The notes under the pieces: model-generated
Database searches by the model: none
What the model was told of the DNA's origin: nothing
Seen by the model: the letters and a program-made list of their open reading frames with translations, nothing else
DNA from: an uncultured Elusimicrobia bacterium
Lineage (GTDB): Bacteria > Elusimicrobiota > Elusimicrobia > UBA1565 > UBA9628
DNA: 64,000 nt
Direction: 5' to 3'
Assembly (NCBI GenBank): GCA_903881545.1
Contig: CAIRTQ010000048.1
Coordinates: forward strand, 25,914 to 89,913
Program-made: the position numbers and the translations under genes
Shown here: positions 29,439-63,222 of the stretch, piece by piece
How the letters are laid out: every line of letters starts with the position of its first letter
Position numbering within the stretch: the first letter of the stretch is position 1

Positions 29439-29441
29439 GGA

Positions 29442-30998: not shown

Positions 30999-31278
30999 AC
31001 AGCCTCCAGGTCTCTATCCAAGAGAACGCTGCTGATAGGGCCGAGGTTGCAGGGACGGGTTTGGGGTCAAGGGACGCTGGCGGCTATTTGCCGTTCCATG
31101 ACCCTGCGACCCGCAAGGTCGCAGGGCCGGCGCGAGCGATTCCACTCTCGCGCCGAATTTATGAAAAGCCTTTTTCTCTTACCTCCAGCGCTGGAGGTAA
31201 ACCATCGGAAATTGATGAGAAAATAGGCGCTTTTCTTCGGGCAAGTCGCCGGATGACGATATGAGGGGCTCGGGCCTC

Positions 31279-31372
31279 GGATTTTAACCGGACAGGAGGG
31301 TTTCGGCCTGGGATTTGGGGGAGCCTTAGGATTTTAACCGGACAGGAGGGTTTGCCTGGGTTTTTGGGGAGC
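31279..31372. repeat. Tandem direct repeat (~48-bp unit, 2 copies) upstream of the HNH gene
   Basis: GGATTTTAACCGGACAGGAGGGTTT...GGGATTTGGGGGAGCC occurs twice in tandem, with minor differences between the copies. Confidence 0.55.
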
Positions 31373-31450
31373 CTCGCGCCCTGCACGATGCTTTTGAGGC
31401 GAAGGCGCAGGATAGGGGGAACTATTCTCGGGGTCATTCGTATATTCAGC

Positions 31451-32662: not shown

Positions 32663-32664
32663 CG

Positions 32665-34738: not shown

Positions 34739-35211
34739 GGTTTGCCTCTGAAGTGCTTGCGAAAGTCGGTGAATAGGCCTGGGTGACTGCAAATGCAGAT
34801 CGGCTCTCGGCCGGTCTTTGCCAGCAGCAGAATAGGCATGGTCAAGAGGTGGGCTTTGCGCGGGGCGAGCAGGATGGCGATGACATGCTTGCACAGGCTG
34901 CCTCCGCCGGATGAGACTTCGACCTTCCGGGCGCCGTCCGGGCAGGTGCAGTGATGGCCGTTCTTCCCGCTTAGGTCTATGGAAACATGATAGGGTTCGT
35001 CGCCGCCGCGGACCATGTAGGACGCCTCGGCCTTGCCGGCCGCGAGCCGTTCGAAATTGTATCTCCTGCGCACCTTTTTGGCCCGAGCCAGGCGGAGGCG
35101 GAATCCCAAAGGATCGAAGGGGACGGTCTCGGTCCATTCTTTTGGGACGACGGGGCGTTTTCTTTTCATGTCCTTTTCAAGCTGCCAATGCGGATAAGAG
35201 CAAAGCCGCAT
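34735..35211 (-). CDS. SWIM zinc-finger protein
   Basis: HHCTCPDG...CKHVIAILLA is a CxC...CxH SWIM signature. Confidence 0.5.
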   Translation of the reverse strand: MRLCSYPHWQLEKDMKRKRPVVPKEWTETVPFDPLGFRLRLARAKKVRRRYNFERLAAGKAEASYMVRGGDEPYHVSIDLSGKNGHHCTCPDGARKVEVSSGGGSLCKHVIAILLAPRKAHLLTMPILLLAKTGREPICICSHPGLFTDFRKHFRGKP

Positions 35212-35482
35212 GGCCTTCCTGCAAGGCGGCGACCACCAGATGCCGGCAGATGACGGGGCCCTTGTTCATCCGCCGGACCAGCCCTCCCCAGGCCCAATCC
35301 CGGCAGGTGCAGTAGTGCCGGCCCTGGCCCGAGATGTCGAGGTACACATAGCAGGTCCGGCCGTTGTGGCGGGCGCGCAGGACGATCTCCGAGGCCTTGC
35401 GTTCGATCTCATCGAGGCGGACCTCGTCGCGGCTCTTGCGGGAGAACCACCCCGCGATGGACTTCCGCGGCATGGCGATCAT
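35177..35482 (-). CDS. SWIM zinc-finger protein (paralogue)
   Basis: HYCTCRDW...CRHLVVAAL is a SWIM signature. Overlaps both neighbours. Confidence 0.5.
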   Translation of the reverse strand: MIAMPRKSIAGWFSRKSRDEVRLDEIERKASEIVLRARHNGRTCYVYLDISGQGRHYCTCRDWAWGGLVRRMNKGPVICRHLVVAALQEGHAALLLSALAA

Positions 35483-36807
35483 GACCCGGCCTCGATCCCT
35501 TTCGGAAGGTCCTTCTTTCCGTTGCCGTTGCTGGCTCCGTTGCCGGCGCCGTTGCCGCTGGGGACCGCGAAGCCGACCGAGGCCAGGGGCTTGAGGGCGC
35601 CGTCCGCCTTGAAGTTCGTGTCGAGCTGGGACCTGAGCTTGGCGACGCTGTCTGTAAGGTCCGTGTCGCGCGACGGCCGGCCTTCGTTGACGCCGTGCAG
35701 AAGGGCCGCGACCGCGGTTTCCTGGACATAGGCCATGGAGAACCCGTGGCTGTCCCGCGCGGCGCGGCGCAGGGCCGCCTCGCCGAAGCGGCCGAGCCCC
35801 TTCTTGCGCAGGAGGCGCAGGCGCTCGTCCTCGCCGGGCAGGCCGAAATGCCAGACCTTGTCGAATCGGCTGGGCCGGTTGAGCAGGGCGGGGTCGAGCT
35901 TTTCCGGGGCGTTGGTCGTGGCGATGACGATGAGCCCGTCCGGCGCGGTGATGCCGTCGAGCAGGTTCAGGAGGTAGGACAGAGAGACCTTCGTGCCGTC
36001 TTGCAGGCGGTCGAGGTCTTCCAGGATGAGGATGGCTGGCCCTTCCTCGGACGGCATGCGGAAGGCGCGCGCCAGGGTGGCGTCGTCGATGTCGCTCTTG
36101 AGCGGCAGGAGGAATATGCCGACCTTGGTGTTGGCGGCGATGATCTTGGCGGTCAAGGTCTTGCCGCAGCCGGGAGGGCCGGAGAACAGGAATCCGCGGC
36201 GGAAGGGAAGGTTGAGTTCCTTGTAGAGCGGCTTGGCTTTGAGGAAGCTGCGTACGCTGTCGCGGATCTCCTCGATGCGGCCGGTAGGCAGGACCACGTC
36301 GTCCCAGCCGAGCTTGGGCCGCGGGATGGGGCCCTCCTGGAAGATGTAGATGCAGGAGGTCCTGGAGTTGAAGCGGCGCTCGAATGCCTTGAGCTCGCGC
36401 CAGAGGTCTTCGAGAGCGTCGCGGTCCTTGATGGCGATCAGCGTGCTTGGTTCCTCCCCGAAGCGCATCACCAGGGAGAACCTCTGATAATGGACGGGGG
36501 TATTCTTCCAGACGAAATCAATCTCGCCGACCCAGGTCTCCTCGTCTATCCCCGCGCCGCGGCGGTGCAGGGGGGGAGTGAGCAGGCTCTGGCGCCGTCC
36601 GGACTTCCCGGAGTCCCAGTCGATGCTGGGAGAGACTTCTTCGCGGACGACGGCGCCCGGCGCATGGGAGCGCAGGAAGGCGGGCAGGAGCGCGTGGCTC
36701 ACGCTCGACGCATGGGGTGCGATGCGGTAGGTCAGCCAGCCGTCCGACAAGGGGTGCTTGCGCCGGAACTCGGCCAGCTTTTCATCGATGAAGTGTGAAT
36801 CGCTCAT
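35479..36807 (-). CDS. Classic-clade AAA ATPase with an N-terminal domain
   Basis: LFSGPPGCGKTLTAK (Walker A), ILILEDLDRL (Walker B), ATTNAPEKLDPALLNRPSRFDKV (second region of homology). Gly/Asn-rich C-tail. Confidence 0.7.
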   Translation of the reverse strand: MSDSHFIDEKLAEFRRKHPLSDGWLTYRIAPHASSVSHALLPAFLRSHAPGAVVREEVSPSIDWDSGKSGRRQSLLTPPLHRRGAGIDEETWVGEIDFVWKNTPVHYQRFSLVMRFGEEPSTLIAIKDRDALEDLWRELKAFERRFNSRTSCIYIFQEGPIPRPKLGWDDVVLPTGRIEEIRDSVRSFLKAKPLYKELNLPFRRGFLFSGPPGCGKTLTAKIIAANTKVGIFLLPLKSDIDDATLARAFRMPSEEGPAILILEDLDRLQDGTKVSLSYLLNLLDGITAPDGLIVIATTNAPEKLDPALLNRPSRFDKVWHFGLPGEDERLRLLRKKGLGRFGEAALRRAARDSHGFSMAYVQETAVAALLHGVNEGRPSRDTDLTDSVAKLRSQLDTNFKADGALKPLASVGFAVPSGNGAGNGASNGNGKKDLPKGIEAGS

Positions 36808-36870
36808 ATCATTCCTCCTGCTTATGAAACGGCCCCGGCAGGCGCCAGGTTGCAGTCCGGCGCGATGCTC

Positions 36871-38127
36871 CTAGGCCGAAAAGCCGATGGACTGCGGGCT
36901 GCCGACAGCGGCGCTGCCGCTGGAAGCCTCCTTGATCTGGACTTTGAGCTGGGCCACGGCCGTGTCCAGATGCGCGTCAACGGCCTTGACCTTGGCGTGC
37001 AGGGCCGCGAGCATGGCGCTGGTAAGGGCTTCCTGGACATAGGCCATGGAGAAGCCCTGGGAGGCCTTGGCGGCGCGTTCGACGGCGGCGTCGGAAAAGC
37101 CGGCCCGGTTCTTGAGCTTGAGCAGGGCGAGGCGCTCGGCGAAGCCGGGGAGCTTGAACTCCCAGACCCGGTCGAAGCGGCTGGGCCGGTGCAGGAGCGC
37201 GGGGTCGAGCCGCCCCGGGTTGTTGGTGGTGGCGATGACGATGATGCCTTCCGGACAGCTGAGGCCGTCGAGTGTGTTGAGCAGGTAGGCCAGGGACACC
37301 TGCCTGCTGTCCACCATCTTGTCGAGGTCTTCGAGCAGGAGCACGCAGGGCGCGTTGTGCACGGCCGTCGAAAAGGCCTGGTCCATGGTCCTTTCGTCGA
37401 GGTTGCTCTTGATGAGCAGGGTGACCATGTTGACGCGGTATTCGGACGCGATGACCTTGCTCACCAAGGTCTTGCCGTTGCCGGGGGGGCCGATGAAGAG
37501 GAAGCCGCGGCGGTAGGGCAAGCCCATCTCTTTGTACGCCGGGCGCGCTTTGAGGAAGGCTTCGAAGTTGTCGCGGATCTGGGCTTTCATGCCGTCGGGC
37601 AGGACCACGTCCGTCCAGCGCTGCTTCGGCCTGGGCAGGTCCGGCCCGTTGATCACGTTGATCTTCCTGATGAAGGTGTGCCGGCGTTGTTTACAGAAAC
37701 GCAGCCCTTCTTTCCAGAATGACTCCAGGGCGGCCAGGTCCGTGGTCGCGATGAAAGTGAGCTCATGGGCGGTGGGGCCTTCCCTGGGAGCCCACAGCCG
37801 GCGCAAATGGATGCGGGCGCCGCGCCATTTGAGGCTGATGTCGCCTTGCCAGTCGTACTCGATGGCGCCCTTGCCGCGGAGCATGCGGGGGAGGTAGGTC
37901 AGGCGTTCCCGGACATGGCCCTGGTCGTAGAAGATATGAGTGACGATGGCCTCATCGAAGTCCGCGGGCTTGAGCGCGGAGCGCAGGAAGGCCGGAGCCT
38001 TCGGTATGAAGGACATGTAAGAGTTCGCGCAGAGATGGACATGCCAGCCGTCCTCGGCCGGATGCCGGGCGCGGAACCGGGAGCGTTCGTCCTTTATGAA
38101 TTCGTGAAGGGTCATGGGTGCCTCCAC
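36871..38127 (-). CDS. Classic-clade AAA ATPase (paralogue of 35479-36807)
   Basis: LFIGPPGNGKTLVSK, LLLEDLDKM, ATTNNPGRLDPALLHRPSRFDRV. N-terminal domain similar to the paralogue. Confidence 0.7.
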   Translation of the reverse strand: MEAPMTLHEFIKDERSRFRARHPAEDGWHVHLCANSYMSFIPKAPAFLRSALKPADFDEAIVTHIFYDQGHVRERLTYLPRMLRGKGAIEYDWQGDISLKWRGARIHLRRLWAPREGPTAHELTFIATTDLAALESFWKEGLRFCKQRRHTFIRKINVINGPDLPRPKQRWTDVVLPDGMKAQIRDNFEAFLKARPAYKEMGLPYRRGFLFIGPPGNGKTLVSKVIASEYRVNMVTLLIKSNLDERTMDQAFSTAVHNAPCVLLLEDLDKMVDSRQVSLAYLLNTLDGLSCPEGIIVIATTNNPGRLDPALLHRPSRFDRVWEFKLPGFAERLALLKLKNRAGFSDAAVERAAKASQGFSMAYVQEALTSAMLAALHAKVKAVDAHLDTAVAQLKVQIKEASSGSAAVGSPQSIGFSA

Positions 38128-44441: not shown

Positions 44442-44534
44442 GCGGTGGGGCCGCTCGGAGCTGCGGCTGAAAATTTGTTTAATATATGCCGTAGGCTTCA
44501 TATAGGAATATGAGAATATCGATGAGAGGGGGAA

Positions 44535-45194
44535 ATGCAGCTTTCCATCCGTGAGGCGGCCCGGCTGCTCAATGTCGAGGAGCGGCAGGTGTATCGCTGG
44601 CTGGATGCCGGCGACATCCCGGCCTGCCGGATCGGAGACGAGGCGCGTTTCAACCGCGCCGAACTTCTGGAATGGGCGACCATGCGGAGGCTGCCGCTGT
44701 CCTCCGAACTGCTCCAGGAACCCGCCGACGGCTGCCGCCTGAGCCAGGCTCTGGAGGAAGGCGGCGTCCGCTACGGCCTGCGCGCCGTGGACCGGGCGCA
44801 AGCCTTTTCCGCCATGATCGCGGCCCTCCCGCTCCCGGAGGGGGCGGATCGTGAGACCATAGCGGGCCTGCTCCTGGCGCGCGGCGAGCACGCCATGACG
44901 CCGGTGGGCGACGGCATCGCCATACCTCACGTGCGCCAACCGGCGGTCCTGGAACTACCACGGCCGCTCGTGACCTTGCTTTTTTTCCAGGCGCCGGTGG
45001 ACCTCGGGGCTCCGGATGGGATTCCCGTGGGCACGATGTTCTTTCTTTTGAGCCCCACGGTGCGGGCCCATCTGCAGATCCTGTCGCGTCTGGCGGCGGC
45101 GCTGCGGGATCCGGGCCTGAAGGCGGCCTTGGCCCGCCAGGCGCCGGCGGCGGACATCCTGCGCGAGGTCCGGCGCATCGAGGGCATCGGCTGA
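44535..45194 (+). CDS. HTH (MerR/excisionase-type) plus PTS EIIA-2-like domain regulator
   Basis: N-terminal REAARLLNVEERQVYRWLDAGDIPACRIG. C-terminal PTS_EIIA_2 with GDGIAIPHVR (phospho-His motif). Sits directly upstream of the hydrogenase-like operon. Confidence 0.55.
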   Translation: MQLSIREAARLLNVEERQVYRWLDAGDIPACRIGDEARFNRAELLEWATMRRLPLSSELLQEPADGCRLSQALEEGGVRYGLRAVDRAQAFSAMIAALPLPEGADRETIAGLLLARGEHAMTPVGDGIAIPHVRQPAVLELPRPLVTLLFFQAPVDLGAPDGIPVGTMFFLLSPTVRAHLQILSRLAAALRDPGLKAALARQAPAADILREVRRIEGIG

Positions 45195-47146
45195 TGGCAT
45201 GGCTCCTGCTCAGCCTCGGCATCCTGCTGGCCAGCGGCTTGGCCGCGTGGGTTCTGCGCCGGGAATCCATAGGCTTGGCAGGGGCACTCGTCGGTTGCGC
45301 CGCGGGCCTGGCCTCCGCGGCCGCGCCCTTGATGACAGGGCGAAGCTGCGCCCTGTCCTTGCCCTGGTCCGTGCCCTACGGTTCCTTTCACCTTGAGATA
45401 GATGCCTTGTCGGCCTTCTTCCTGCTGCCGCTTTTCTTGGTGGGGGCCCTGTCCGCGGTCTACGCCTACGGCTACCTGGCGCCCTATCGGAAAAGTCAGC
45501 CGCTGGGCCGGACCTGGTTCTTCTACAACGCCTTGGTGGCCAGCATGGCTTTAGTCGTGACGGCCCGCAACGCGGTCTTGTTCCTTACGGCCTGGGAAGC
45601 GATGGCCCTGACTTCGTTCTTCCTGGTCGTCTTCGAATCCGAGCGCAAGGATGCGCGGGAGGCGGGCTGGAGCTACCTGGTGGCCGGCCATCTGGGCACG
45701 GCATTCCTCATCATCCTCTTCGTCTGGCTGGGCAGCCGCGCCGGGAGCCTGGAATTTGAACGGTTCGGCAACCTCGACAGCCGCGCGGCCGGCATGCTCT
45801 TCCTCCTGGCTTTGATAGGGTTCGGGACCAAGGCGGGGTTCTTCCCGCTCCACGTCTGGCTGCCCGAGGCGCACCCGGCCGCCCCCAGCCATGTCTCCGC
45901 TTTGATGTCCGGGGTCATGATCAAGATGGGCATCTACGGCCTGCTGCGGATCTATATATGCCTGGGGCCGGGCCCGGCCTGGTGGGGCTGGCTCATGGTC
46001 GCCGTCGGCGTCGTCTCCGGAGTTCTGGGCGTTCTCTTCGCTTTGGCCCAGAGTGATCTCAAGCGGCTGCTCGCCTACTCCAGCGTGGAGAACATAGGGA
46101 TCATCGCCCTGGGCCTGGGGCTGGGCATGCTGGGCCGCAGCCTCGGGATCCCGGCTTTGGCCGCTCTGGGCTTCGCCGGAGGGCTGCTGCATCTGCTCAA
46201 CCACGCCCTGTTCAAGAGCCTGCTCTTCCTGGGCGCGGGCGCCGTGGCCCACTCGGCCGGTACCCGCGATATCGAGCATCTGGGCGGTCTGGCCAAAGCT
46301 ATGCCCTGGACTGCGGGCTTCTTCCTCTTGGGGGCGGTTGCCATCTGTGGACTGCCCCCGCTCAACGGCTTCGTCGGAGAATTCCTGATCCTGCTTGGCG
46401 CTTACCACGGGGCCTGCGCCGTGGGACACCTGGCCGCGGCGGGGGCGGCCGCCATAGCGGCCATCGCTCTCATCGGGGGCTTGGCCGCCGCATGCTTCAC
46501 CAGAGCTTTCGGCATCGTGTTCCTGGGCCAGCCGCGCCGCCGCCACACCGAAAGCATCCACGAGGTCGGGTGGTCCATGCGCATCCCCATGGCGGTGCTG
46601 GCCGCGAGCTGCGTCGCCATCGGCCTGGGCGCACCTTGGCTGTTCGCCTCGGCGGACCGAGTCCTGGGTCCCCTGGGAGTCGGCGCGGGATCCTGGGCTG
46701 GAAGCGGGGCCAGAGGCTGTCTGCTTGGGCTGACCCTATTGTGGGCCGGCCTTTTGGCCGTCGCCTTGGCGGCGGCTGGGTTTCGGCGCTGGCTTCTCGG
46801 CGGCAGGCCGATAGGGGAGGGGGGCACTTGGGACTGCGGTTATGACCGTCCCTCGGAGCGTATGCAGTACACCGCCTCGTCTTTCGCCCAGCCGCTGATC
46901 TCGCTGTTCGCACCTGTTTTGCGTACCCGCAGGGAGCTGGCCACCCCGACCGGATACTACCCGGGACCCGCGGACCTGGCCACGACCACGCCGGATATCG
47001 CCAGCCGCAGACTGTTCAGCCCGGCTTATGAGGCAATGCAGGCCTTGCTGGCAAGGTTCCGCTGGCTCCAGCACGGCTATCTCCAGCTCTATGTCCTTCA
47101 ACTCGCGGTCACGTTGCTGGTGCTGCTGATATGGAAACTGGGTTGA
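45194..47146 (+). CDS. Proton-pumping antiporter-like subunit (HyfB/NuoL family)
   Basis: 650-aa polytopic protein with the NuoL/M/N family core (WLPEAHPAAPSHVSALMSGVMIK). Confidence 0.75.
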   Translation: MAWLLLSLGILLASGLAAWVLRRESIGLAGALVGCAAGLASAAAPLMTGRSCALSLPWSVPYGSFHLEIDALSAFFLLPLFLVGALSAVYAYGYLAPYRKSQPLGRTWFFYNALVASMALVVTARNAVLFLTAWEAMALTSFFLVVFESERKDAREAGWSYLVAGHLGTAFLIILFVWLGSRAGSLEFERFGNLDSRAAGMLFLLALIGFGTKAGFFPLHVWLPEAHPAAPSHVSALMSGVMIKMGIYGLLRIYICLGPGPAWWGWLMVAVGVVSGVLGVLFALAQSDLKRLLAYSSVENIGIIALGLGLGMLGRSLGIPALAALGFAGGLLHLLNHALFKSLLFLGAGAVAHSAGTRDIEHLGGLAKAMPWTAGFFLLGAVAICGLPPLNGFVGEFLILLGAYHGACAVGHLAAAGAAAIAAIALIGGLAAACFTRAFGIVFLGQPRRRHTESIHEVGWSMRIPMAVLAASCVAIGLGAPWLFASADRVLGPLGVGAGSWAGSGARGCLLGLTLLWAGLLAVALAAAGFRRWLLGGRPIGEGGTWDCGYDRPSERMQYTASSFAQPLISLFAPVLRTRRELATPTGYYPGPADLATTTPDIASRRLFSPAYEAMQALLARFRWLQHGYLQLYVLQLAVTLLVLLIWKLG

Positions 47147-48045
47147 TCTTGTCGTCCGCAGGCGGCATCGCCGGCGCGGCCTTGGCCGCCCCGTTGCTGT
47201 CCGGTGTCATTAACCGGACCAAGGCCGTCTTCGCGGGCCGCCGGGGCCAGCCGCTCCTGCAGGCTTACCACGACATCATCAAGCTTCTGGGCAAGGGCGC
47301 GGTCTACAGCAGGACCACGACCTGGGTGTTCCGGGCGGGGCCCGTCATCCAATTTTCATGCGCGGCCTTGGCTCTGGCTTTGCTGCCCATGGGATCCCGG
47401 CCGGCCCTGCTCGCATTCCCGGGCGACTTCATCTGCCTGGCCGGCCTGCTGGCATTGATGCGCTTCTTCCTAATGACGGCGGCCTTGGATACGGGCTCGA
47501 GTTTCGAGGGGATGGGCGCCAGCCGCGAAGCGGCTTTCTCCGCGCTGGCCGAGCCGGTCTTCCTGCTGAGCCTTGCGGTCCTGGCGCGCTTGACGGGCGC
47601 GCTGTCCCTTTCCGGAATGGCCTCCCGGCTGGCCTTGCATCCGGCGGAGGGATCCGGGCCGGTCCTGGCGCTTACGGCCTTGGCTCTCTTCGTGGTCTTC
47701 CTGGCGGAAAACGCCCGGGTGCCCGTCGACGACCCGAACACGCACCTGGAGCTGACCATGATACACGAGGTCATGGCGCTCGACCATGGCGGTCCGGACC
47801 TGGCCTTCATCCAATATGCGGCGCAGCTCAAGCTCTGGATCATGGGCATTCTGGTCGTCAACGCCTTGGGGCTGGGAGGACGCGGCGGCTGGGCCTGCGC
47901 CGGGGGCATGGCCGCGCTGGCGGTGCTCATCGGGATCGTGGAATCCACGATGGCGCGTCTGCGTCTTCTGAGGGTGCCCCAGCTCATGATCGGAGCGGGC
48001 GCGCTCTCACTGTTGGCCCTCCTGCTGACATTGGTGCGGCCATGA
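47131..48045 (+). CDS. HycD/HyfC/NuoH-like membrane subunit
   Basis: Polytopic protein of the NuoH/HycD family pattern (LTMIHEVMALDHGG...). Confidence 0.7.
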   Translation: METGLILSSAGGIAGAALAAPLLSGVINRTKAVFAGRRGQPLLQAYHDIIKLLGKGAVYSRTTTWVFRAGPVIQFSCAALALALLPMGSRPALLAFPGDFICLAGLLALMRFFLMTAALDTGSSFEGMGASREAAFSALAEPVFLLSLAVLARLTGALSLSGMASRLALHPAEGSGPVLALTALALFVVFLAENARVPVDDPNTHLELTMIHEVMALDHGGPDLAFIQYAAQLKLWIMGILVVNALGLGGRGGWACAGGMAALAVLIGIVESTMARLRLLRVPQLMIGAGALSLLALLLTLVRP

Positions 48046-48686
48046 ACGCTTGGAGCGAGCTGATCTTGATCCTGGTCATCCTCACGAACCTGCTGCTGGT
48101 CGGCGGCAACCGCCTGACCGGTCTCATAAGATTCGCCGCCGTCCAGGGGTTGCTGGCAGGCTTGCTGCCTCTGCTGGCGCATTCCCAAGCGCTCACCGCC
48201 AGGCTGGTCTTCCTCGCCGCGTTGGCGGTCGCGCTCAAAGGCGTGGCGTTCCCTCTGCTGCTGGGCCGGGCCTTGCGCGAAGCCGATATCCGGCGCGAGG
48301 TGGAGCCGTTCGTGGGTTCCGAGTTCTCCATTTTTGTGGGGATATCCCTGCTGGCCTTCTCTTTCTGGCTGAGCGAGTGGCTGGGCATCGCGCAGGCGGG
48401 CTGGCTGCGGCTCATGCTGCCGGTCGGGTTCTTCACGATGATGACCGGGCTTTTCCTCATCATCTCCCGCCACAAGGCCTTGACCCAGGTGCTGGGTTAC
48501 CTGGTCATGGAGAACGGCATCTTCCTGCTCGGCGTGGCGCTGGTGGGTGAAGTCCCTTTCATCGTCGAGCTGGGTGTCCTTCTGGACGCTTTCGTGGCGG
48601 TCTTCGTCATGGGCATCGCGATCCACCACATCAACCGCGAGTTCAATCATATGGATGTCCACTTGATGGCGAGGCTCAAGGAATGA
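48042..48686 (+). CDS. HyfE-like small membrane subunit
   Basis: 214-aa hydrophobic protein, coupled between the HycD-like and HyfF-like genes. Start at the internal Met (ATG/TGA overlap at 48042-48045). Confidence 0.5.
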   Translation: MNAWSELILILVILTNLLLVGGNRLTGLIRFAAVQGLLAGLLPLLAHSQALTARLVFLAALAVALKGVAFPLLLGRALREADIRREVEPFVGSEFSIFVGISLLAFSFWLSEWLGIAQAGWLRLMLPVGFFTMMTGLFLIISRHKALTQVLGYLVMENGIFLLGVALVGEVPFIVELGVLLDAFVAVFVMGIAIHHINREFNHMDVHLMARLKE

Positions 48687-50176
48687 ACGGACTGCCCCAG
48701 CCCGGTTTGGCGGCCTTGGTCCTCCTGCCCTTGGCGGGCTGCGGACTCTGCTGGGTGCTCCGCGCGCCCAAGCGCATCCTCGCCGTGACCTGGCTGGCCA
48801 GCCTGCTCAGCGCCTTGGCCGCCGCGCCCGCGGTGTGGGCCTGCCTGCATGGCCGGGCGCTGCAGGAGGCCCAGGGCTGGCTCGCCCTTGACGCTCTTTC
48901 CGCCTTCCATCTGGCCGTAATGTACTGCGTCTTCATCCTGAGCTCGGCCTATGCGCAGATCTACTTTAACGGGGGACTCTCTTCTGGGGAGCTTTCCCTG
49001 GCGCAGATCCGGCAATTCGCTTCCCTGTGGCTTGGCTCCTTGGCGGCCTTGACCCTTACCTTGATATCCAACAACCTCGGGATGATGTGGGTCGGGATGG
49101 AAGCGACCACGCTGCTGACGGCATTCCTCATCATCGTGCGCCGCAGCCCCGACGCCCTCGAGGCCATGTGGAAGTACCTGCTCATCTGCTCCGTAGGCAT
49201 CGCCTTTGCCTTCATCGGAACCTTGCTGGTCGCGGCGTCGGCCAAGGGCCTGGTCCAGGATCCCGGCCAGCTTCTGCACTGGTCGCGGCTGATGGCCGCG
49301 GCATCCGGCTTGAACCCGAAACTGCTCAAGGCGGGCTTCCTGTTCGTCCTGGTCGGCTACGGCACCAAGGCGGGCCTGGCGCCCATGCACAGCTGGCTGC
49401 CCGACGCCCACAGCCAGGCCCCGGCGCCCGTCTCCGCCATCTTCTCCGGCTGCATGCTCAACGCCGGGCTCTACTGCATCCTGCGCTACGGCGCCCTTTG
49501 CCACGCCCTGCCGCAGCTGGCGGATTGGAGCGCGGGTCTGCTGCGGCTCCTGGGACTGCTCTCCATCAGCGTGGCCGCCGTCTTCATCCTCTTTCAGAAC
49601 GACGGCAAGCGCCTGCTGGCCTACAGCAGCGTGGAGCATCTGGGCATCATCGCATTGGGGATGGGACTGGGGACACCCGGGATATTCGCGGCCCTCTTCC
49701 ATACCTTGAATCATGCCCTAGGTAAGAGCGTGGGCTTCTTCTGCATGGGCCGGCTGGGCCAAATCTATGGCACCAATGATCTGCGGCGCCTGGCGGGCGC
49801 CGCCCGGCGCGAGCCGATCTGGGGCAACGGCCTGTTGCTGAGTCTCCTGGCCATCCTGGGCGCGGCGCCTTCCGCGGTGTTCCTCAGCGAGTTCCTGATC
49901 CTCAAGGCCGCCGTGGAAGCGCATCGTGCCGGGGTGGTGGCCGTGTTCCTGGCGGGCACCTGCATCATCTTCATCAGCGCCTCCCGCCGCGCCATCGCCA
50001 CGGCCTGGGGCGAGCCGGCTTCTCCCGCGCGCCTCCCTGGGCCGCGCGCGGGCCTGGCCGCGACCCTGCTCGTGGCGCTGCCTTTGGCGCTGTTGTTCTG
50101 CCTCGGCGTCTGGATGCCGGGACCTTTCCGCGGGGCGCTGGAGCGCTGCGCGGCGGTGCTGAACGGCAGCCGATGA
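48683..50176 (+). CDS. Proton-pumping antiporter-like subunit (HyfF/NuoN/M family)
   Basis: WLPDAHSQAPAPVSAIFSGCMLNAG is the conserved antiporter-subunit motif. Confidence 0.7.
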   Translation: MNGLPQPGLAALVLLPLAGCGLCWVLRAPKRILAVTWLASLLSALAAAPAVWACLHGRALQEAQGWLALDALSAFHLAVMYCVFILSSAYAQIYFNGGLSSGELSLAQIRQFASLWLGSLAALTLTLISNNLGMMWVGMEATTLLTAFLIIVRRSPDALEAMWKYLLICSVGIAFAFIGTLLVAASAKGLVQDPGQLLHWSRLMAAASGLNPKLLKAGFLFVLVGYGTKAGLAPMHSWLPDAHSQAPAPVSAIFSGCMLNAGLYCILRYGALCHALPQLADWSAGLLRLLGLLSISVAAVFILFQNDGKRLLAYSSVEHLGIIALGMGLGTPGIFAALFHTLNHALGKSVGFFCMGRLGQIYGTNDLRRLAGAARREPIWGNGLLLSLLAILGAAPSAVFLSEFLILKAAVEAHRAGVVAVFLAGTCIIFISASRRAIATAWGEPASPARLPGPRAGLAATLLVALPLALLFCLGVWMPGPFRGALERCAAVLNGSR

Positions 50177-50180
50177 ACCG

Positions 50181-51608
50181 ATGAAGATGAGAAACGCCCA
50201 GTCCGTCCCGCTGTCCGAGATCCCGCGGCTGGCCATCGGCGAATTCCGCGTCGAGGTCTTGCGGGCGGTCCGGGAGGGGGAACGCCTCTGCGCATTCTTC
50301 CATCACGGCGGGCGGCTCTGGGCCGTCTTGGCCTGCGACGAGAGCGGCCTCCTGCGCCTGGTCAGCGGCGAGGTCCAGGATTCTTACGCGGCCTTGACGC
50401 CGGAGTGCCCGCAGGCGCACTGGTTCGAGCGCGAGGTCTGCGAAGAGTCCGGCATCCGGCCCGAGGGGCATCCTTGGCTGCGGCCGATCCGGTCCGGTTA
50501 CGCCGATTTTTATCGCGTCGAGGGAGATGAGGTCCACGAGGTGGCCGTGGGCCCGGTGCACGCCGGCGTCATAGAGCCCGGGCATTTCCGTTTCCAGTGC
50601 CACGGCGAGGACGTCCTGCATCTGGAGATCGCCCTGGGCTATCAACGCCGCGGCGCGCAGGCTCTGATCCAAGGCGGTCCGGACCGCAGGACGGTCCATG
50701 TCATGGAGACCTTGGCCGGCGACACCTCCATCGGACATGTCCTGGCCTATGCGCAAGCGATGGAGTCTCTTTCCGGCACGCGCGTCCCGGCCCGGGCGCT
50801 GGCCTGGCGCGGGGTGGCGCTGGAGCTGGAGCGGCTCGCCAACCATTGCGGCGATCTGGGGGCCTTGGCCAACGACGTGGGTTATCTGCCCACGGCCTCC
50901 TTCTGCGGCCGCCTCCGCGGCGACTTCCTCAACATGACCGCCTTGCTTTGCGGCAGCCGCTTCGGACGGGGACTGGTCCGGCCCGGCGGGGTCAGGTTCG
51001 ACGCCGAGCCCGGCCGGATCGAGGACCTGTTGCGCCGGTTGGAAGCCGCGGCCAGGGATTCGGCGTCCGCCGTGGGACTGCTTTGGAAATCCAATTCGGT
51101 CATGGGGCGCTTCGAGGACACGGGGAAGCTCTCCCGGGAGGACTGCCTGGCGCTGGGTCTCGTGGGCCCGGCCGCCCGGGCCTGCGGGGTCGAGCGCGAC
51201 GTGCGCCATGATTTTCCGCACGGGATCTACAGCTATGCCCAGGTGCCGGTCTCGACCGCGCAGACCGGCGACGTGCTGGGCCGCGCTTTCGTCAGATGGC
51301 TGGAGATGCAGCGCAGCTTGGCCTTCGCCAAGGAGACTCTGGAGCATCTGCCCACGGGGAGCATTGCCGCGGCGCCAGCGCCCTGCGCGCCGGAGAGGAT
51401 CTGCGTCAGCTTGGTCGAGGGCTGGCGGGGGGAGATCTGCCACGTCGCCCTGACCGACGGCGCCGGGCGCTTCGCGCGCTATCAGGTCGTCGATGCCTCC
51501 TTCCATAACTGGTTCGGTTTGGCCCATGCCATGCGCGGCCAGCAGATATCGGATTTCCCTCTCTGCAACAAGAGCTTCAATCTTTCCTATTGCGGCCATG
51601 ATCTCTAG
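50181..51608 (+). CDS. Fused NuoC-NuoD/HycE-like large subunit; the canonical N-terminal NiFe CxxC appears to be absent
   Basis: GPVHAGVIEPGHFRF (the NuoD/HycE GPxHP motif). At the expected RxCGxC position the sequence is ETLAGDTSIGH. The C-terminus has PLCNKSFNLSYCGHD instead of DPCxxCxxH. Confidence 0.7.
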   Translation: MKMRNAQSVPLSEIPRLAIGEFRVEVLRAVREGERLCAFFHHGGRLWAVLACDESGLLRLVSGEVQDSYAALTPECPQAHWFEREVCEESGIRPEGHPWLRPIRSGYADFYRVEGDEVHEVAVGPVHAGVIEPGHFRFQCHGEDVLHLEIALGYQRRGAQALIQGGPDRRTVHVMETLAGDTSIGHVLAYAQAMESLSGTRVPARALAWRGVALELERLANHCGDLGALANDVGYLPTASFCGRLRGDFLNMTALLCGSRFGRGLVRPGGVRFDAEPGRIEDLLRRLEAAARDSASAVGLLWKSNSVMGRFEDTGKLSREDCLALGLVGPAARACGVERDVRHDFPHGIYSYAQVPVSTAQTGDVLGRAFVRWLEMQRSLAFAKETLEHLPTGSIAAAPAPCAPERICVSLVEGWRGEICHVALTDGAGRFARYQVVDASFHNWFGLAHAMRGQQISDFPLCNKSFNLSYCGHDL

Positions 51609-51617
51609 GGACTGCCC

Positions 51618-52370
51618 ATGCTTAAAGAATTGATCGCCAGATTCCGGCAGGGGCATCGGACCATCGCCTTCCCCGTCGCGGAGCCCCAGTTGCCGGACCG
51701 CTTCAGAGGCCGCCCCTCATGGGAGCGCGCCAAATGCGTCGCGGACTGCACGGAATGCGCTAAGGTCTGCCCCACGGGGGCCATCCAAGGCGCCGGGCCT
51801 GCCGGCCTGGACCTGGGGCGCTGTCTTTTTTGCGAGGACTGCGCGCGGGTCTGCCCTTCCGGGGCCTTGCGCTTCACCCAGGACTTCCACCTGGCCGCCC
51901 GGTCCCGGCAGGACCTCATCACTTCCGACGGGACCCTGAAAGAGATGGAAGGGCTCAGCGCGCAATTACGCGGACTCCTGGGCCGTTCGCTGAAGCTACG
52001 CCAAGTCAGCGCCGGAGGCTGCAACGCCTGTGAAGCCGACATCAACGTCCTGGGCACGGTGGTATTCGACTTGGGGCGCTTCGGCGTCCAGTTCGTGGCT
52101 TCCCCCAGGCATGCCGACGGCCTTCTGATTACGGGGCCGGTGACCAAGAACATGGAGCTGGCGCTGCGCAAGACCTACGACGCCGTGCCTGCGCCCAAGA
52201 TCGTCATCGCCTGCGGCGCCTGCGCCGTCTCGGGCGGGCCATACCTAGGCAGTCCCCAGGTGCTCGACGGCGCGGCCGGCGTAGTGCCGGTGGACCTCTT
52301 CATCCCGGGCTGCCCGCCGCATCCCCTCACCATCCTCGACGCGATTTTGCGGCTCTTGGGACCGCGCTAG
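51618..52370 (+). CDS. Fusion of a 2x[4Fe-4S] ferredoxin (HycF/NuoI-like) with a NuoB/HycG-like small subunit
   Basis: [13 protein letters not shown] and [12 protein letters not shown] (two CxxCxxCxxxCP motifs). NuoB-type ligands [18 protein letters not shown] and IPGCPPHP. Confidence 0.7.
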
Positions 52371-52417
52371 ACGGCCGGCCGCCCGAGCCCCGAGGACCGG
52401 TCGCCTTTTTATGTAGA

Positions 52418-54826
52418 ATGGCAAAGCCAAGCACCGTTATTGGAGATACCATGACGCTGGAACCTGAACTGCTGCGCCGGATGGACGCGTACTGGCGGGC
52501 CGCCAACTACCTTTCGGTCGGCCAGATATATCTATACGATAATCCTCTCCTCAAGCGGCCGCTGCTGTTGTCGGACATCAAGCGTATGCTGCTGGGGCAC
52601 TGGGGCACGGTCCCCGGGCAGAACTTCGCCTATGTGCACCTCAACCGGGTCATCAAAAAATACGACCTGGACATGATCTTCGTCTCCGGACCAGGGCACG
52701 GTGGTCCGGCCGTCGTGGGCAATACCTACCTCGAAGGCACTTACAGCGAGGTCTATCCCGATATCAGCCGTGACGAGGGCGGCCTGCGCAAGCTCTTCCG
52801 GCAGTTCTCCTTCCCGGGGGGCATCCCCAGCCACGCGTCGCCCGAATGCCCGGGCTCGATCCACGAGGGCGGCGAGCTAGGCTATTCGCTGAGCCATTCC
52901 TTCGGGGCCGCGTTCGACAATCCCAGCCTCATCGTGGCTTGCATCGTAGGCGACGGCGAGGCCGAGGCCGGCCCCCTGGCCACGGCGTGGCATTCCAATA
53001 AGTTCCTGGACCCGGCGGGCGACGGGGCGGTCCTGCCCATCCTGCATCTCAACGGCTATAAGATCAGCAATCCGACGGTGCTGGCCCGCATCCCGCGCGA
53101 GGAGCTGGAACAGTTCTTCCTCGGCTGCGGCTGGCAGCCCATTTTCGTCGCGGGCCATGAACCCGAACCGATGCACCAGGCCATGGCCGCGGCTCTGGAT
53201 ACGGCAGTGGAGCGTATCCAGGAGATCCAGCGGGAAGCCCGCGTCCGCCGCGGCGCGCGGCCGCGCTGGCCGATGATCGTCCTCGATTCGCCCAAGGGCT
53301 GGACCGGGCCGAAGGCCGTAGGCGGCCTAAAAGTGGAAGGCACTTTCCGTTCGCATCAGGTGCCCTTGCCGGTGGATGCGGCGCATCCCGATAACATCGC
53401 GCAGCTCGAGAACTGGCTCAAGAGCTATCGGCCGGAGGAGCTCTTTGACGAGGCCGGCCGCTTGAAGCCGGAGCTGGCCGAGCTCGCGCCCCAGGGCGAG
53501 CGGCGCATGGGCGCCAATCCGCACGCTAACGGCGGCCTCCTTCTGCGCGACCTGAGGATGCCTGATTTCCGCGACTACGCGGTCGAAGTGCCATCGCCGG
53601 GCGTGCGCGGCATCGGCGACACGCATGTGCTGGGGAAATTCCTGCGCGACGTGACCAAGCTCAACGCCGAGCAGAGGAATTTCCGTGTCTTTGGCCCGGA
53701 CGAGACCCTCTCCAACGGCCTGGAGGCACTCTTCGAGACGACCCAGCGCCAGTGGGACGCCGAGTCCAGGCCCGACGACATTTTCCTGGCACCCGCCGGA
53801 CGGGTTATGGAGATGCTCAGCGAACACCAGTGTGAGGGCTGGCTGGAAGGCTATCTGCTCACCGGCCGGCACGGGATATTCAACTGCTACGAGGCCTTTA
53901 TCCATATCGTGGACTCGATGTTCAATCAGCACGCCAAATGGCTAAAGATCACTTCACGCCTGCCCTGGCGGCGCAAGATCGCCTCGCTCAACTATCTGCT
54001 GACCTCCCATGTCTGGCGGCAGGACCACAACGGCTTCACGCATCAAGATCCTGGCTTCATCGACCATGTCACCAACAAAAAAGCCGAAATCGTACGGGTG
54101 TATTTGCCGCCTGACGCCAACTGCCTGCTCTCCGTTATGGACCACTGTCTGCGCAGCCGCCATTACGTCAACGTGGTAGTCGCGGGCAAACACCCGGCGC
54201 CGCAGTGGCTCGGCATGGACGCGGCCGTCAAGCATTGCGCTGAGGGCATCGGCATCTGGCAATGGGCCAGCAACGACCAGGACGCGGAGCCCGACGCGGT
54301 CATGGCCTGCTGCGGAGACGTGCCTACGCTGGAGGCCCTGGCGGCGGTGTCTATCCTGCGCGAGCACTTGCCGGGCCTGAAGCTCCGGGTGGTCAACGTC
54401 ATGGACCTCATGAAGCTACAGCCCCAGAGCGAGCACCCGCATGGCTTGAGCGACCAGGACTTCGACGAGCTGTTCACCACGGACAAGCCGGTCATCTTCG
54501 CCTTCCACGGCTACCCTTGGCTGATCCACAGGCTGACCTACCGCCGCGCCAACCACGACAACATCCATGTGCGCGGCTACAAGGAAGAGGGGACCATCAC
54601 CACGCCCTTCGACATGACGGTGCTCAACGAGCTGGACCGTTTTCATCTGGTGATGGATACCGTGGACCGTCTGCCTCAGACTGGGGCGAAGGGCATCCAT
54701 CTCAAGCGGATGCTCAAAGACAAGTTGGCGGAGCACCGGCAGCACATCGTCCAGAACGGCGAGGACCTGCCGGAGGTCCGCGGCTGGTTGTGGCCGGGCG
54801 CCGTGCCCATGCGGCAGCAGTTATAA
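52418..54826 (+). CDS. xfp: Phosphoketolase (Xfp family)
   Basis: [23 protein letters not shown], and the thiamine-diphosphate-binding region GDGEAE. 802 aa. Confidence 0.85.
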
Positions 54827-61679: not shown

Positions 61680-62951
61680 TCAGGCGTCCGTGATGGCCGC
61701 CTTGGCGCGCAAGAACTCCAGGGTCTTGCGATCCCGCATCATCCCCAGGACATCCTCGCGGCGCTCGGCGAACGACCGGCGCACGGCTTCCTTGCGCTCC
61801 TCGGTGGGCGCGGCGGCCAAGCTCTTCTCCAGCTCCGCGGCAACCTCGGGCTCGGCGACATCGATCTTCTCGCGCTGCGCGATGGCGGGCAGCAGGAAGG
61901 AGAGGCGCACCCGGTCCTCGGCCTGGGGCCGCAGCTTGGTCTTGAACTCCTCGACCTGCTGGGCCGTGAACTCGTCCCGGCCGCGCAGGACTTGACGCTG
62001 CAAGGTCTCGATCATGTGCTCCAGCTGGGCCGTGACCAAGGCGGGGGGGACGGGCATGTGGTTGGCCTTCAGGAGCGCCGCCTCCATCTGCTCCGCGAGC
62101 TCGCGCTCGCTGCGCGAGCGACCCTCATCCGTGATGACCTCCCGGAGCTTGACCTTGAGCGCATCGACGGACTCGAAGCCCATGTCCTTGGCGAAATCCG
62201 CGTCCAGAGCGGGCAGGATCTTGCTCTTGATCTCCTTGACGGTCACCTGAAGCTCGGTATCCTTGCCGCCGATCTTGACCATGACGGCCTTGGTCTGCGC
62301 GCGCTTCATGCCCAGCAGCCCTTCGCAGAGGCCCGCCACGGTCTGCTCCGACGACAGATCCACGAGTTCGTTGGCGCCCTTGACATCGGCCAGGGGCTTG
62401 CCGTCGCGCACGCCCGCATAGTCCATCACCACGTAATGGCTGCGGCCCGCTGCCTCTTCGGCGGCCGGCTCCAGGCGGGCGTGGGCCTCGCGCAGCTCCG
62501 TCAGGCGCGCCTCCACCGCCGCATCGTCAGCCGGATAGGAATTCCGGGTCAGCTTGATGCCGGCGTAGTCCTTGGGGACGACGCGCGGCGGCACCTCCAC
62601 GCGCACCTGAAATTGCAACGGCTTGCCTGTGGCTTGCGAGACATCCACGATGGCCGGGGTGGCCACGGGATTCAGGTTCAGTTCGCGCAGGGCCTCGGGG
62701 ACGTGCTTGCGCACGAAATGGTCGAGGACAGCTTCCTGCGCATGGCCCGCGAACTGTTGGCGCACCAGGTCGAGCGGAACCTTCCCGGGCCGGAACCCGG
62801 GAACCTTGGCCCGCTGCTGGATGCGCAGGATGGCGTTATGTCCCTCGGCCTCCACTTGGACGGCGGGGACCTCGACGGAGAACGTGGCCACGCAGGCGTC
62901 CTCCTTCACGATCTTGAAGCGAACTTTGTCCGACGCGGTGAAAAGGCCCAT
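61680..62951 (-). CDS. tig: Trigger factor
   Basis: Ribosome-binding N-domain pattern, an FKBP-like middle domain and a C-terminal domain. Conserved position upstream of clpP. Confidence 0.8.
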
Positions 62952-62986
62952 GTTACCTCCTGAAGGTATCGCCATTTGCGGCGGAT

Positions 62987-63067
62987 GGGCGGGGGGGGAT
63001 TTGAACCCCCAAGCCTTGCGGCACACGGTCCTAAGCCGTGCGCGTCTGCCAGTTCCGCCACCCGCCC
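62987..63067 (-). tRNA. tRNA-Leu (anticodon UAG)
   Basis: The reverse complement folds as a type II tRNA: acceptor GGGCGGG/CCCGCCC, anticodon loop CUUAGGA, T-loop GGGGGTTCAAATCCCCC. Highly similar to bacterial tRNA-Leu. Confidence 0.75.
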
Positions 63068-63149
63068 GATGAGGGCGCCGAAAAAATCAGGACCGAGGGC
63101 CGGCCCGAACCTGACCACTCAGTCCTAATCCTGACGAGCACTAAATCCC

Positions 63150-63222
63150 TGGGCCATATAGGACTCGAACCTATAACCTTGTCCTTAAGAGGGACCTGCT
63201 CTACCAATTGAGCTAATGACCC
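63150..63222 (-). tRNA. tRNA-Lys (anticodon CUU)
   Basis: The reverse complement GGGTCATTAGCTCAATTGGTAGAGCAGGTCCCTCTTAAGGACAAGGTTATAGGTTCGAGTCCTATATGGCCCA forms a canonical cloverleaf with anticodon loop CTCTTAA. Confidence 0.75.

Follow-up and report, generated by a model that had tools for sequence, protein, structure and literature searches.

Introduction

Energy-converting-hydrogenase-related (Ehr, also Ech-related) complexes are close to the group 4 [NiFe]-hydrogenases, lack the Ni-Fe ligands and have no assigned function (PMC6349859, PMC10284858, PMC12342949). Genome papers have recorded them for twenty years, each time as "function unknown". They are widespread over many phyla, and the hosts named in the literature include Nitrospira, Geobacter and methanotrophs. 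Here we describe an operon for such a complex in a stretch of 64,000 nucleotides from an uncultured Elusimicrobia bacterium (GenBank assembly GCA_903881545.1, contig CAIRTQ010000048.1, positions 25,914 to 89,913 of the forward strand), below called the window. It is well supported that this operon typifies the known Ehr family, a nickel-free sister lineage of group 4f, and that it has a regulator of its own. The family and its loss of the nickel ligands were known already and the window adds no new kind of system; new here is a regulator family that is dedicated to Ehr operons and keeps its phospho-histidine in most members.

As quoted in later papers (PMC7894505, PMC6349859, PMC6688271), Coppi 2005 and Marreiros 2013 give GSU0739-0745 of Geobacter sulfurreducens as the type example of Ehr. 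The subunits EhrA-1 (NuoL-like), EhrC (HyfE-like), EhrL and EhrS were named in PMC7894505, where Geobacter Ehr subunits were also found in the proteome with abundances that shift with the electron donor; ehrA-2 and ehrB were named in PMC13194489, and the gene set ehrABCDLS in PMC6688271. Two further systems are important for comparison. The operon of Desulfosporosinus orientis has been classed as group 4f (PMC7248197). The Hyq "endo-hydrogenase" is encoded by hyqRBCEFGI in Azorhizobium caulinodans and other diazotrophic alphaproteobacteria (PMC2650096, PMC3357923); it belongs to the nif regulon (PMC2650096), and its authors noted that the large subunit lacks both CxxC motifs (PMC3357923).

The large subunit has lost all four Ni-Fe ligands

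The large subunit EhrL matches PF00346 (Complex1_49kDa) with 9.5e-39 as well as a fragment of PF00329 (Complex1_30kDa). Its best relative among solved structures is HycE (7z0s_E, 4e-42), followed by Pyrococcus MbhL (1e-31) and Thermus Nqo4 (1.5e-30). Sequence identity amounts to 36% with the group 4f large subunit of D. orientis and to 29% with HycE. At the position of the N-terminal L1 motif R-x-C-G-x-C-x3-H EhrL reads ETLAGDTSIGH (residues 176–186), and in the residue-level alignment TLAGDTSIGH faces RVCGICGFAH of HycE and ERICGACSFSH of group 4f. The C-terminal L2 motif [DNE]-[PL]-C-x-x-C-x-x-[HR], present as DPCYSCTDR in HycE and ELCYSCLDR in group 4f, is replaced by NLSYCGHDL (467–475), with SFNLSY(CG) facing SLDPCY(SC) of HycE. 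The nearest cysteine-bearing relatives carry ER[IV]CGACSFSH and NKSF[NE]LCY[SA]C.DR. Since the flanking DFPL.NKSF is common to EhrL and these relatives, the register of the alignment is fixed. The four ligand positions are therefore occupied by A179, T182, S469 and G472, and C471 lies one residue ahead of the fourth. Cysteines are found at positions 37, 52, 76, 87, 140, 223, 242, 257, 322, 335, 402, 408, 420, 462 and 471, and no CxxC pair exists anywhere in the EhrL sequence. The protein ends on CGHDL and has no C-terminal extension.

The replacements are shared by the relatives of EhrL. E-T-L-A-G-D-T-[ST]-[VI]-G-H and the terminal DFPLCNKSFNLSYCGHDL show little or no variation among the best 120 homologues, which argues against a sequencing artefact, and the former active-site region belongs to the most conserved stretches of the whole subunit. 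The family alignment further shows that the hydrogenase-type coupling loop GPVHAGVIEPGHFR is kept in Ehr and group 4f alike. When EhrL was aligned to 2fug_4, the positions of the quinone ligands of complex I, Tyr87 and His38 of Nqo4, were taken by G180 and I131.

C462 and C471 were considered as a metal site common to the whole family. They are invariant in the subclade of the window only and are replaced in deeper Ehr clades, which read PL[IV]NKSFNLSY[SA]GNDL; this ruled the site out.

The loss of the N-terminal ligands and the replacement of the C-terminal DPCxxCxxH had been proposed in the first-pass annotation, which also named the finding that would speak against it: a true [NiFe]-hydrogenase in which the cysteine motifs had been misaligned, with hyp maturases encoded close by. 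The group 4 fold and the operon type would fit such an enzyme, and no support specific to it was found. Whether aligned to HycE and MbhL with HMMER or to group 4f within the family alignment, EhrL shows A, T, S and G where the ligands would be. Furthermore, PF00374 (NiFeSe_Hases) gave no match in EhrL at E<=0.01, whereas of the 120 relatives listed for the cysteine-bearing sequence P0215 nearly all have it. Finally, no hyp or hycI genes were detected when the gene calls of the whole 64-kb window were compared with Pfam. Both alignments and the cysteine inventory thus refute a true hydrogenase, for which we see practically no chance left.

A fused small subunit with an iron-sulfur wire of variable length

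The small subunit EhrS is encoded by one continuous open reading frame (ORF), with Fer4 domains at residues 33–89 and PF01058 (Oxidored_q6) at residues 135–245. Residues 10–115 align to MbhN and HycF, and residues 102–245 to MbhJ (2.8e-32) and HycG (3.8e-28). The ligands of the NuoB-type cluster are C135, C138, C202 and C232, of which the first two lie in GGCNACE, a CxxC of the hydrogenase type; complex I has a tandem CC in GLACCAVE. The ferredoxin half holds two motifs. The second one (C69, C72, C75, C79-P) is canonical. The first one is C40-x3-C44-x2-C47-x3-C51-P, so that the two CxxCxxCxxxCP clusters described previously were right for the second motif only; the fusion itself and the presence of the NuoB-type ligands in the same polypeptide were described correctly.

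All 26 related genome loci that we retrieved carry a fused small subunit, and over its full length EhrS is 35% identical to the fused small subunit of D. orientis. In one cysteine-bearing relative (L033) ferredoxin and small subunit are encoded by separate, adjacent genes. Fusion occurs on both sides of the ligand split, in the 26 Ehr loci and in the group 4f operon of D. orientis, and is therefore unconnected with the loss of nickel. It is a trait of the lineage, common with group 4f and no peculiarity of the window.

The clusters differ in their conservation. In 27 of 27 aligned small subunits the NuoB-type cluster has all four of its cysteines. The neighboring cluster, formed by the first three cysteines of the second motif and the CP of the first, keeps its cysteines in all displayed sequences; by analogy with Nqo9 we take it to be the equivalent of N6b next to N2. 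From the ligands the electron wire of Ehr exists in a three-cluster, a two-cluster and, in Hyq, a one-cluster version.

Cysteines of the distal ferredoxin cluster are lost in some Ehr lineages (L005, L006 and L021; genes at approximately 11500–12270 and 4686–5414). In these cysteine-poor lineages the first motif is shrunk to ...CP; L021 is additionally missing the last cysteine of the second motif.

Operon layout and membrane arm

The operon consists of seven tightly packed ORFs on the plus strand at 44535–52370, in surroundings with a G+C content of 65% (Table 1). Four neighboring gene pairs overlap by 1, 16, 4 and 4 nt and the remaining gaps are 4 and 9 nt, which makes a single transcription unit probable. 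The start codon of the HyfE-like gene was picked from the reading frame and the 4-nt overlap with the preceding gene. A consensus scan of the operon region for promoters and terminators gave no matches above chance. The hairpin after EhrS is not significant (z-score 0.30 against shuffled sequences), and the consensus terminator scan made no call there.

Table 1. Genes of the Ehr operon and adjacent sequence elements (positions in the window)
Feature	Position	Strand	Remarks
Palindrome TCATAT-N4-ATATGA, candidate operator (inferred)	44498-44513	.	22 nt 5' of the regulator start codon
Regulator, helix-turn-helix (HTH) plus phosphotransferase system (PTS) EIIA	44535-45194	+	219 aa; PF12728 1.4e-13, PF00359 4.6e-15
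EhrA/HyfB/HycC-like antiporter-type membrane subunit	45194-47146	+	650 aa; PF00361 1.1e-57
EhrB/HyfC/HycD (NuoH-like) membrane subunit	47131-48045	+	304 aa; PF00146 1.6e-30
EhrC/HyfE-like membrane subunit	48042-48686	+	214 aa; NF008556 and PF00420, both below cut-off
EhrD/HyfF-like antiporter-type membrane subunit	48683-50176	+	497 aa; PF00361 2.9e-45
EhrL, NuoC fragment plus NuoD/HycE-like large subunit without Ni-Fe ligands	50181-51608	+	475 aa; PF00346, PF00329 fragment
EhrS, fused HycF/NuoI-type ferredoxin and HycG/NuoB-type small subunit	51618-52370	+	250 aa; Fer4, PF01058
Hairpin followed by UUUUUAU, possible weak terminator between EhrS and the phosphoketolase gene	52358-52411	+	minimum free energy -19.9 kcal/mol

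The subunits show one-to-one best matches to HyfB, HyfC, HyfE, HyfF, HyfG and HyfH plus HyfI in the comparison with Escherichia coli and D. orientis. Counterparts of HyfA, HyfD and HyfJ were not found in the operon in this comparison, and neither were genes for NuoA, NuoJ and NuoK among its ORFs and in the Pfam scan. The HyfB-like subunit reaches 614 bits with NF005086 (hydrogenase-4 subunit B; cut-off 667) and matches HycC (7z0s_C) with 9e-79. With HycC it shares the stretches WEAMAL, GTKAG..PLHVWLPEAH, LLAYSSVENIG, LNHALFKS and NGFVGEF, which presumably carry the conserved glutamate and lysines of the antiporter-like ion path. The HyfF-like subunit matches NF005044 (hydrogenase-4 subunit F) with 2e-110, under the cut-off, and is 42% identical to E. 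coli HyfF. For the HyfE-like subunit NF008556 (hydrogenase-4 membrane subunit, 2.2e-24) and PF00420 (5e-05) each remained under their cut-off. Solved structures matching the NuoH-like subunit were HycD (3.9e-29), MbhM and MbsM only; NuoH of complex I gave no match at 1e-5.

The earlier reading of the locus as an operon of the hyf/hyc group 4 pattern was therefore accurate, as every subunit best matches the corresponding Hyf, Hyc or group 4f subunit, and the HTH-PTS-EIIA gene indeed lies directly upstream. Its proposal of an Ehr- or complex-I-like relative without NiFe site is borne out as regards Ehr and the missing NiFe site. In detail the proteins do not resemble complex I, with CxxC instead of CC in the small subunit and a NuoH-like subunit of the HycD type.

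On the same strand, 47 nt past EhrS, begins a phosphoketolase gene (Xfp, 802 aa, 1438 bits; 52418–54826). This adjacency was absent in every related locus examined. To find a conserved partner enzyme beside the operon (such as formate dehydrogenase, pyruvate:ferredoxin oxidoreductase or carbonic anhydrase), we clustered all ORFs of the window together with those of the 26 related loci; apart from the operon, shadow ORFs and the regulator, nothing recurs.

The lack of a conserved partner dehydrogenase in the 26 loci and the window would also fit a transporter or antiporter of the Mrp type, in which the iron-sulfur module is a structural or redox-sensing cap that gates the flow of ions without turning over a substrate. 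The antiporter-like membrane subunits match Mrp subunits strongly, and the loss of the distal cluster in some lineages points in the same direction. In addition, a role in pH homeostasis was suggested for the Ehr of Methylacidiphilum (PMC6688271), and related genes of Methylocystis are acid-induced, 16- to 23-fold at pH 5 (bioRxiv 10.1101/2025.08.29.672306). However, the ligands of the NuoB-type cluster and of the cluster adjacent to it are retained as described above, and the conserved former active-site region of EhrL suits catalysis better than a passive cap. We consider a transporter of this kind quite unlikely.

Distribution, phylogeny and selection

Homologues of EhrL number in the thousands. 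The best 120 are 60–96% identical and come from Elusimicrobia, Planctomycetota, Acidobacteria, Methylomirabilota, Binatia, Verrucomicrobia, Deltaproteobacteria and others. An exhaustive profile search of 1.84 billion representatives of 50%-identity clusters gave 6375 matches at E<=1e-3. Approximately 140 of the best 150 matching representatives carry the ligand-less motifs, and only five of these 150 (P0215, P0242, P0250, P0259, P0266) keep the cysteines. A metagenome scan with P0215 for the context of cysteine-bearing operons was discarded, as both loci it returned were themselves ligand-less; the context of true cysteine-bearing relatives was taken from a second homology search.

The identical protein occurs in several ENA metagenome assemblies. 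The 26 loci used for synteny were retrieved from species genomes, in which the closest counterpart is 62% identical. Where a locus was complete, its genes followed the order B-(B)-C-E-F-L-S; one subclade has L-S-B-C-E-F instead. The order B-C-E-F-L-S is found in Planctomycetota, Lentisphaerae, Acidobacteriota, Omnitrophota, Methylomirabilota, Spirochaetes and Nitrospirota.

We calculated a neighbor-joining tree for 109 large subunits and rooted it on HycE and HyfG of E. coli; it has no bootstrap values and is indicative only. The ingroup splits into two clades, one with all CGxC...CYxC sequences, including the large subunit of D. orientis DSM 765, and one with all ligand-less sequences. The window falls into a shallow crown group together with Planctomycetota, Lentisphaerae, Methylomirabilota, Omnitrophota and Acidobacteriota. 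With this rough support the ligand-less complexes look like one clade that is sister to cysteine-bearing group 4f, that is, a single offshoot of group 4f with an intact electron wire. The placement agrees with the published position of Ehr specifically close to group 4f (PMC10284858).

A homologue was also present in 88 plasmid or chromid records, mostly from Rhizobium, Azospirillum, Burkholderia and Cupriavidus. Plasmid 3 of Variovorax sp. PBL-E5 (L042) carries two Ehr/Hyf-like operons at 3917–11201 and 14613–19440, about 3.4 kb apart; the large subunit of the first is 41% identical to EhrL of the window, and its small subunit is fused (249 aa).

All six structural genes are under purifying selection. 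The ratio of nonsynonymous to synonymous substitution rates (dN/dS) was 0.17 for EhrL against a 96%-identical relative (dS 0.11), and 0.21–0.29 for the six genes against a 74%-identical relative, for which dS is near saturation. One paper states that Ehr "was already nonfunctional" for want of the NiFe centre (PMC13194489), an assertion made for Geobacter, and the operon of the window could accordingly be a decaying remnant of a group 4f hydrogenase. The dN/dS values of 0.17–0.29 speak against decay, as do the seven intact and translationally coupled ORFs, the identity of 54–67% that the subclade of the window maintains across phyla with invariant motifs, and a dedicated, conserved regulator. 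Neither does decay fit the donor-dependent levels of the Geobacter subunits in the proteome (PMC7894505). A non-functional remnant is thus strongly disfavoured and in our view very improbable.

A regulator family dedicated to Ehr operons

The protein encoded by the first gene combines an N-terminal HTH_17 domain (excisionase/MerR-like) with a C-terminal PTS EIIA-2 domain that is PtsN/EIIA-Ntr-like and contains the phospho-histidine motif GDGIAIPH; its match to TIGR01419 PtsN (1.3e-10) lies under the cut-off. The gene is located directly upstream of the HyfB-like gene, which it overlaps by one base. Nine of the 26 related loci, distributed over five phyla, have a homologue in front of the Ehr operon, as does the nearest relative (L040). 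A search for the regulator gave at least 756 relatives; EIIA was present in all of the best 120, and HTH_17 as well in 119 of them. Four homologues on long contigs were looked up, and each directly precedes an Ehr operon. The regulator family is specific to Ehr operons.

The phospho-histidine is kept in 8 of 10 main-type copies, including that of the window. The two exceptions are copies from Thermoanaerobaculia with glutamine at this position, each preceded by a divergent second paralogue. These tandem HTH-EIIA paralogues lie upstream of the Ehr operon at 8–1182 in locus L004 and 3714–5053 in locus L007; the operon-proximal copy reads IAIPQVR and the upstream copy keeps the histidine.

The palindrome TCATAT-N4-ATATGA upstream of the regulator is unique in the 64 kb, with 0 copies expected from shuffled sequences. 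In the 26 loci a second exact copy occurs only in L006, about 93 nt upstream of the regulator gene. This arrangement suggests an autoregulated operon that may be governed by the phosphorylation state of the PTS, with the palindrome as candidate operator. We found no description of a link between a PTS regulator and Ehr in the literature searched, although other papers could contain one.

The most useful new leads of this analysis are the HTH-EIIA regulator, with its dedication to Ehr, and the stepwise loss of clusters from subtype to subtype; the PTS-receiver regulator of one large subclade suggests concrete induction experiments. A more far-reaching proposal would be that the Ehr subclade of the window is a ferredoxin-linked ion pump with a new non-NiFe pocket (the invariant AGDT...PLCNKSFNLSYCGHDL), directly controlled by a nitrogen-type phosphotransferase relay through the HTH-EIIA protein on a TCATAT-N-ATATGA operator. 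We regard this proposal as doubtful in its entirety. If the relay were true, it would link PTS signalling to membrane energy conversion and give a handle on the conditions under which Ehr is used.

A possible mechanism

We infer a mechanism from the anatomy of the complex, that is from its cluster ligands, the remodelled pocket and the antiporter-type membrane arm. A soluble low-potential donor, probably ferredoxin, would dock on the ferredoxin-like N-terminal half of EhrS. Its electrons would enter at the distal cluster, in the way that has been proposed for Ech and Mbh with their separate ferredoxin subunits, and cross three [4Fe-4S] clusters to the pocket of EhrL, the former Ni-Fe site. This pocket is predicted to be lined by A179, G180, D181, T182, S469, C471, G472, H473 and D474, small polar residues. 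There an acceptor other than a pair of protons would be reduced, without involvement of H2; complex I suggests a membrane quinone as the likeliest candidate. The reaction would be coupled, in principle reversibly, to translocation of H+ or Na+ via the HyfB/HyfF/HyfC/HyfE-like arm. Expression would be set by the first gene of the operon, the HTH protein with its EIIA-Ntr-like receiver, which may tie the complex to PTS phosphorylation and thereby to carbon, nitrogen or energy status.

Cluster ligands, purifying selection and the motifs of membrane arm and loop favour a redox-coupled, ion-translocating enzyme. We hold the explanation as a whole, comprising the Ehr identity, the donor-fed ion-translocating mechanism and PTS-linked regulation, to be probable. 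The identity of the acceptor, if established, would fill a gap between the hydrogenases and complex I.

Several points weigh against this explanation. A quinone as acceptor is at odds with the absence of the quinone ligands of complex I, which G180 and I131 replace, and with a NuoH-like subunit that resembles HycD and not NuoH; moreover, Riflemargulisbacteria with Ehr were reported to lack complete ubiquinone and menaquinone pathways (PMC6349859). C462 and C471, conserved in the subclade of the window only, cannot explain a function of the whole family. Hyp genes could be encoded elsewhere in the genome, outside the 64-kb window, and the orthology with Geobacter GSU0739-0745 rests on gene content and not on alignment. 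For the members with a fused small subunit the proposed mechanism derives from anatomy, not from biochemistry. Finally, the Hyq complexes of Azorhizobium, the sole genetically studied relatives, were reported to take up and evolve H2 in vivo despite having no CxxC (PMC2650096, PMC3357923).

The Hyq data raise the question of an unorthodox hydrogenase that interconverts H2 and quinone/quinol (or ferredoxin) at a site without the four canonical cysteines. Deletion of all hyq genes in A. caulinodans slows diazotrophic growth, and high microaerobic H2 evolution requires hyq (PMC2650096, PMC3357923). The operon on pRL11 of Rhizobium johnstonii, which has the gene order of the published hyqRBCEFGI, encodes a large subunit of the same ligand-less type (TSGDSTVAY...PLCNKSFNCSYSGHDL) that is 35% identical to EhrL, and the coupling loop kept in Ehr is of the hydrogenase type. 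On the other hand the evidence for Hyq is genetic and physiological only, and in the words of its authors a Ni-Fe site is "uncertain, if not unlikely" for HyqG (PMC3357923). Another cofactor that would activate H2 is not known for this fold, and hyp and hycI genes are missing from the 64-kb window. Expression of Ehr in Nitrospira moscoviensis did not increase with H2 (PMC12342949), and no H2 evolution was detected, under oxic conditions, in Methylocystis strongly inducing its group-4f-like genes (bioRxiv 10.1101/2025.08.29.672306). In addition, Hyq lacks the ferredoxin domain of EhrS, so that the redox partners of the two subtypes may differ. An unorthodox hydrogenase is therefore unlikely in our opinion, and we prefer an ion-translocating enzyme that does not act on H2.

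Other features of the window

Outside the operon the Pfam scan of the gene calls divides the window into a defence island (1–27 kb) and housekeeping genes (27–64 kb). A type III-like CRISPR-Cas module at 6137–17699 comprises a Cas10/Cmr2 palm protein (6137–7567), several RAMPs (7564–13565) and Cas1 (16479–17699); two ORFs inside it, at 13568–15900, had no Pfam match. Just downstream of the Cas1 gene lies a CRISPR array (18201–19263), in which the 37-nt repeat GTCGGAAAGAAGTGACTCCCTGATAAGGGATTGAGAC recurs about every 72 nt. It is followed by CHAT-domain proteins at 19257–21140, which also has a PCMT methyltransferase-like region, and at 25659–27779, and by an 820-aa protein in which a metallo-beta-lactamase/beta-CASP nuclease is fused to a Cas_APE2256 (CARF-like) domain (22247–24709). 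The CHAT and nuclease-CARF proteins at 19257–27779 are likely CRISPR-associated effectors. An AbiEii nucleotidyltransferase toxin is paired with a DUF6088 (AbiEi-like) antitoxin at 1285–2930, and an RtcB-like fragment (4722–5708) lies near this pair.

On the minus strand at 27776–38127 we found a run of AAA+ ATPases, with a ClpX-like protein (29442–30998), a MoxR/AAA_5-like protein (33743–35137) and two AAA proteins (35479–38127); a DUF2201 metallopeptidase/VWA protein (32665–33753) is located among them. This run may be another defence or quality-control module. Genes for tRNA-Leu (tag) and tRNA-Lys (ctt) on the minus strand (62986–63222) adjoin a cluster of trigger factor, ClpP and Lon. The longest trigger factor ORF (61680–63026) overlaps the tRNA-Leu gene, and its true start is therefore probably further downstream.

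Comparison with known systems

Complex I, NDH-1 and Fpo share the common plan of the window's complex, with a NuoD-like pocket beside a NuoB-type cluster, a two-cluster relay of the NuoI type, and NuoH-like and antiporter-like membrane subunits; complex I and the window are also alike in having no Ni-Fe site. The differences lie in the exchanged Tyr87 and His38, in CxxC instead of CC, in the lack of NuoA, NuoJ, NuoK and NuoEFG, and in a NuoH-like subunit that finds no complex I NuoH among the solved structures.

The E. coli Hyf and Hyc systems (group 4a; formate hydrogenlyase, FHL, 7Z0S) supply the closest solved structures for three subunits, HycC for B, HycD for C and HycE for the large one, and HycG is second to MbhJ as relative of EhrS. 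The hyf gene order B-C-(D)-E-F-G-H-I is similar to that of the window. E. coli has in addition HyfA/HycB, HyfD, separate H and I subunits, HyfJ/HycH and the HycI protease. HycE carries a C-terminal extension and the four Ni-Fe cysteines, and a formate dehydrogenase serves the E. coli system as partner; the window differs in all of these.

Hyq and the window both have seven-gene operons, a regulator followed by B, C, E, F, G and I, and neither has the hyfA and hyfD of E. coli hyf. The large subunit of the Hyq-type operon on pRL11 and EhrL share the end ...PLCNKSFN.SY.GHDL. However, the HyqI counterpart on pRL11 is a plain NuoB-like protein of 177 aa without a ferredoxin domain, whereas EhrS has an extra 2x[4Fe-4S] domain, and the HyqR counterpart is a 98-aa XRE-type HTH protein without EIIA, in contrast to the HTH_17 plus EIIA regulator of the window. 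The plain, single-cluster HyqI, the short HTH HyqR and the nif regulon that mark the Hyq subtype are thus not features of the window, in whose 64 kb the Pfam scan found no nif genes. Hyq itself is an Ehr-type subfamily with a shorter electron wire.

Group 4f (Ehf; Desor_1265-1270 of D. orientis and ACL22288-93 of Desulfitobacterium hafniense; PMC7248197, PMC9888536) has the same six structural genes in the same order, with subunit identities of 30–39% to the window. The D. orientis small subunit is likewise a fusion of Fer4 and Oxidored_q6 (236 aa). The group 4f large subunit also lacks a C-terminal extension and shares GP[VI]HAG[VI]IEPGHFR and DFP.xNKSF with EhrL. It keeps R-x-C-G-x-C-x3-H, C-Y-x-C and PF00374, whereas in EhrL the ligands are replaced by A, T, S and G. 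The neighbor of the D. orientis operon is a sigma-54 activator, that of the window the HTH-EIIA protein. For the "group 4f [NiFe]-hydrogenase" of Methylocystis the motif "...AARVS", published as genus-specific, resembles the ligand-less ...RVSGD... type (bioRxiv 10.1101/2025.08.29.672306); judged from this motif alone, these genes may in fact encode an Ehr/Hyq complex.

The closest correspondence is with Ehr itself. NuoL-like, NuoH-like, HyfE-like, second antiporter-like, large and small subunits, the gene content by which Ehr is recognized, are all encoded in the window, and its large subunit has no Ni/Fe-coordinating residues. Geobacter Ehr has the same ehrABCDLS subunit set with a ligand-less large subunit, and nothing family-defining differs in the window. 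Geobacter possesses two EhrA-like genes (ehrA-1, ehrA-2), as do the Holophagaceae and Geothrix loci from the window's own subclade, whereas the operon described here has one EhrA-like gene and, in addition, an apparently co-transcribed HTH-EIIA regulator.

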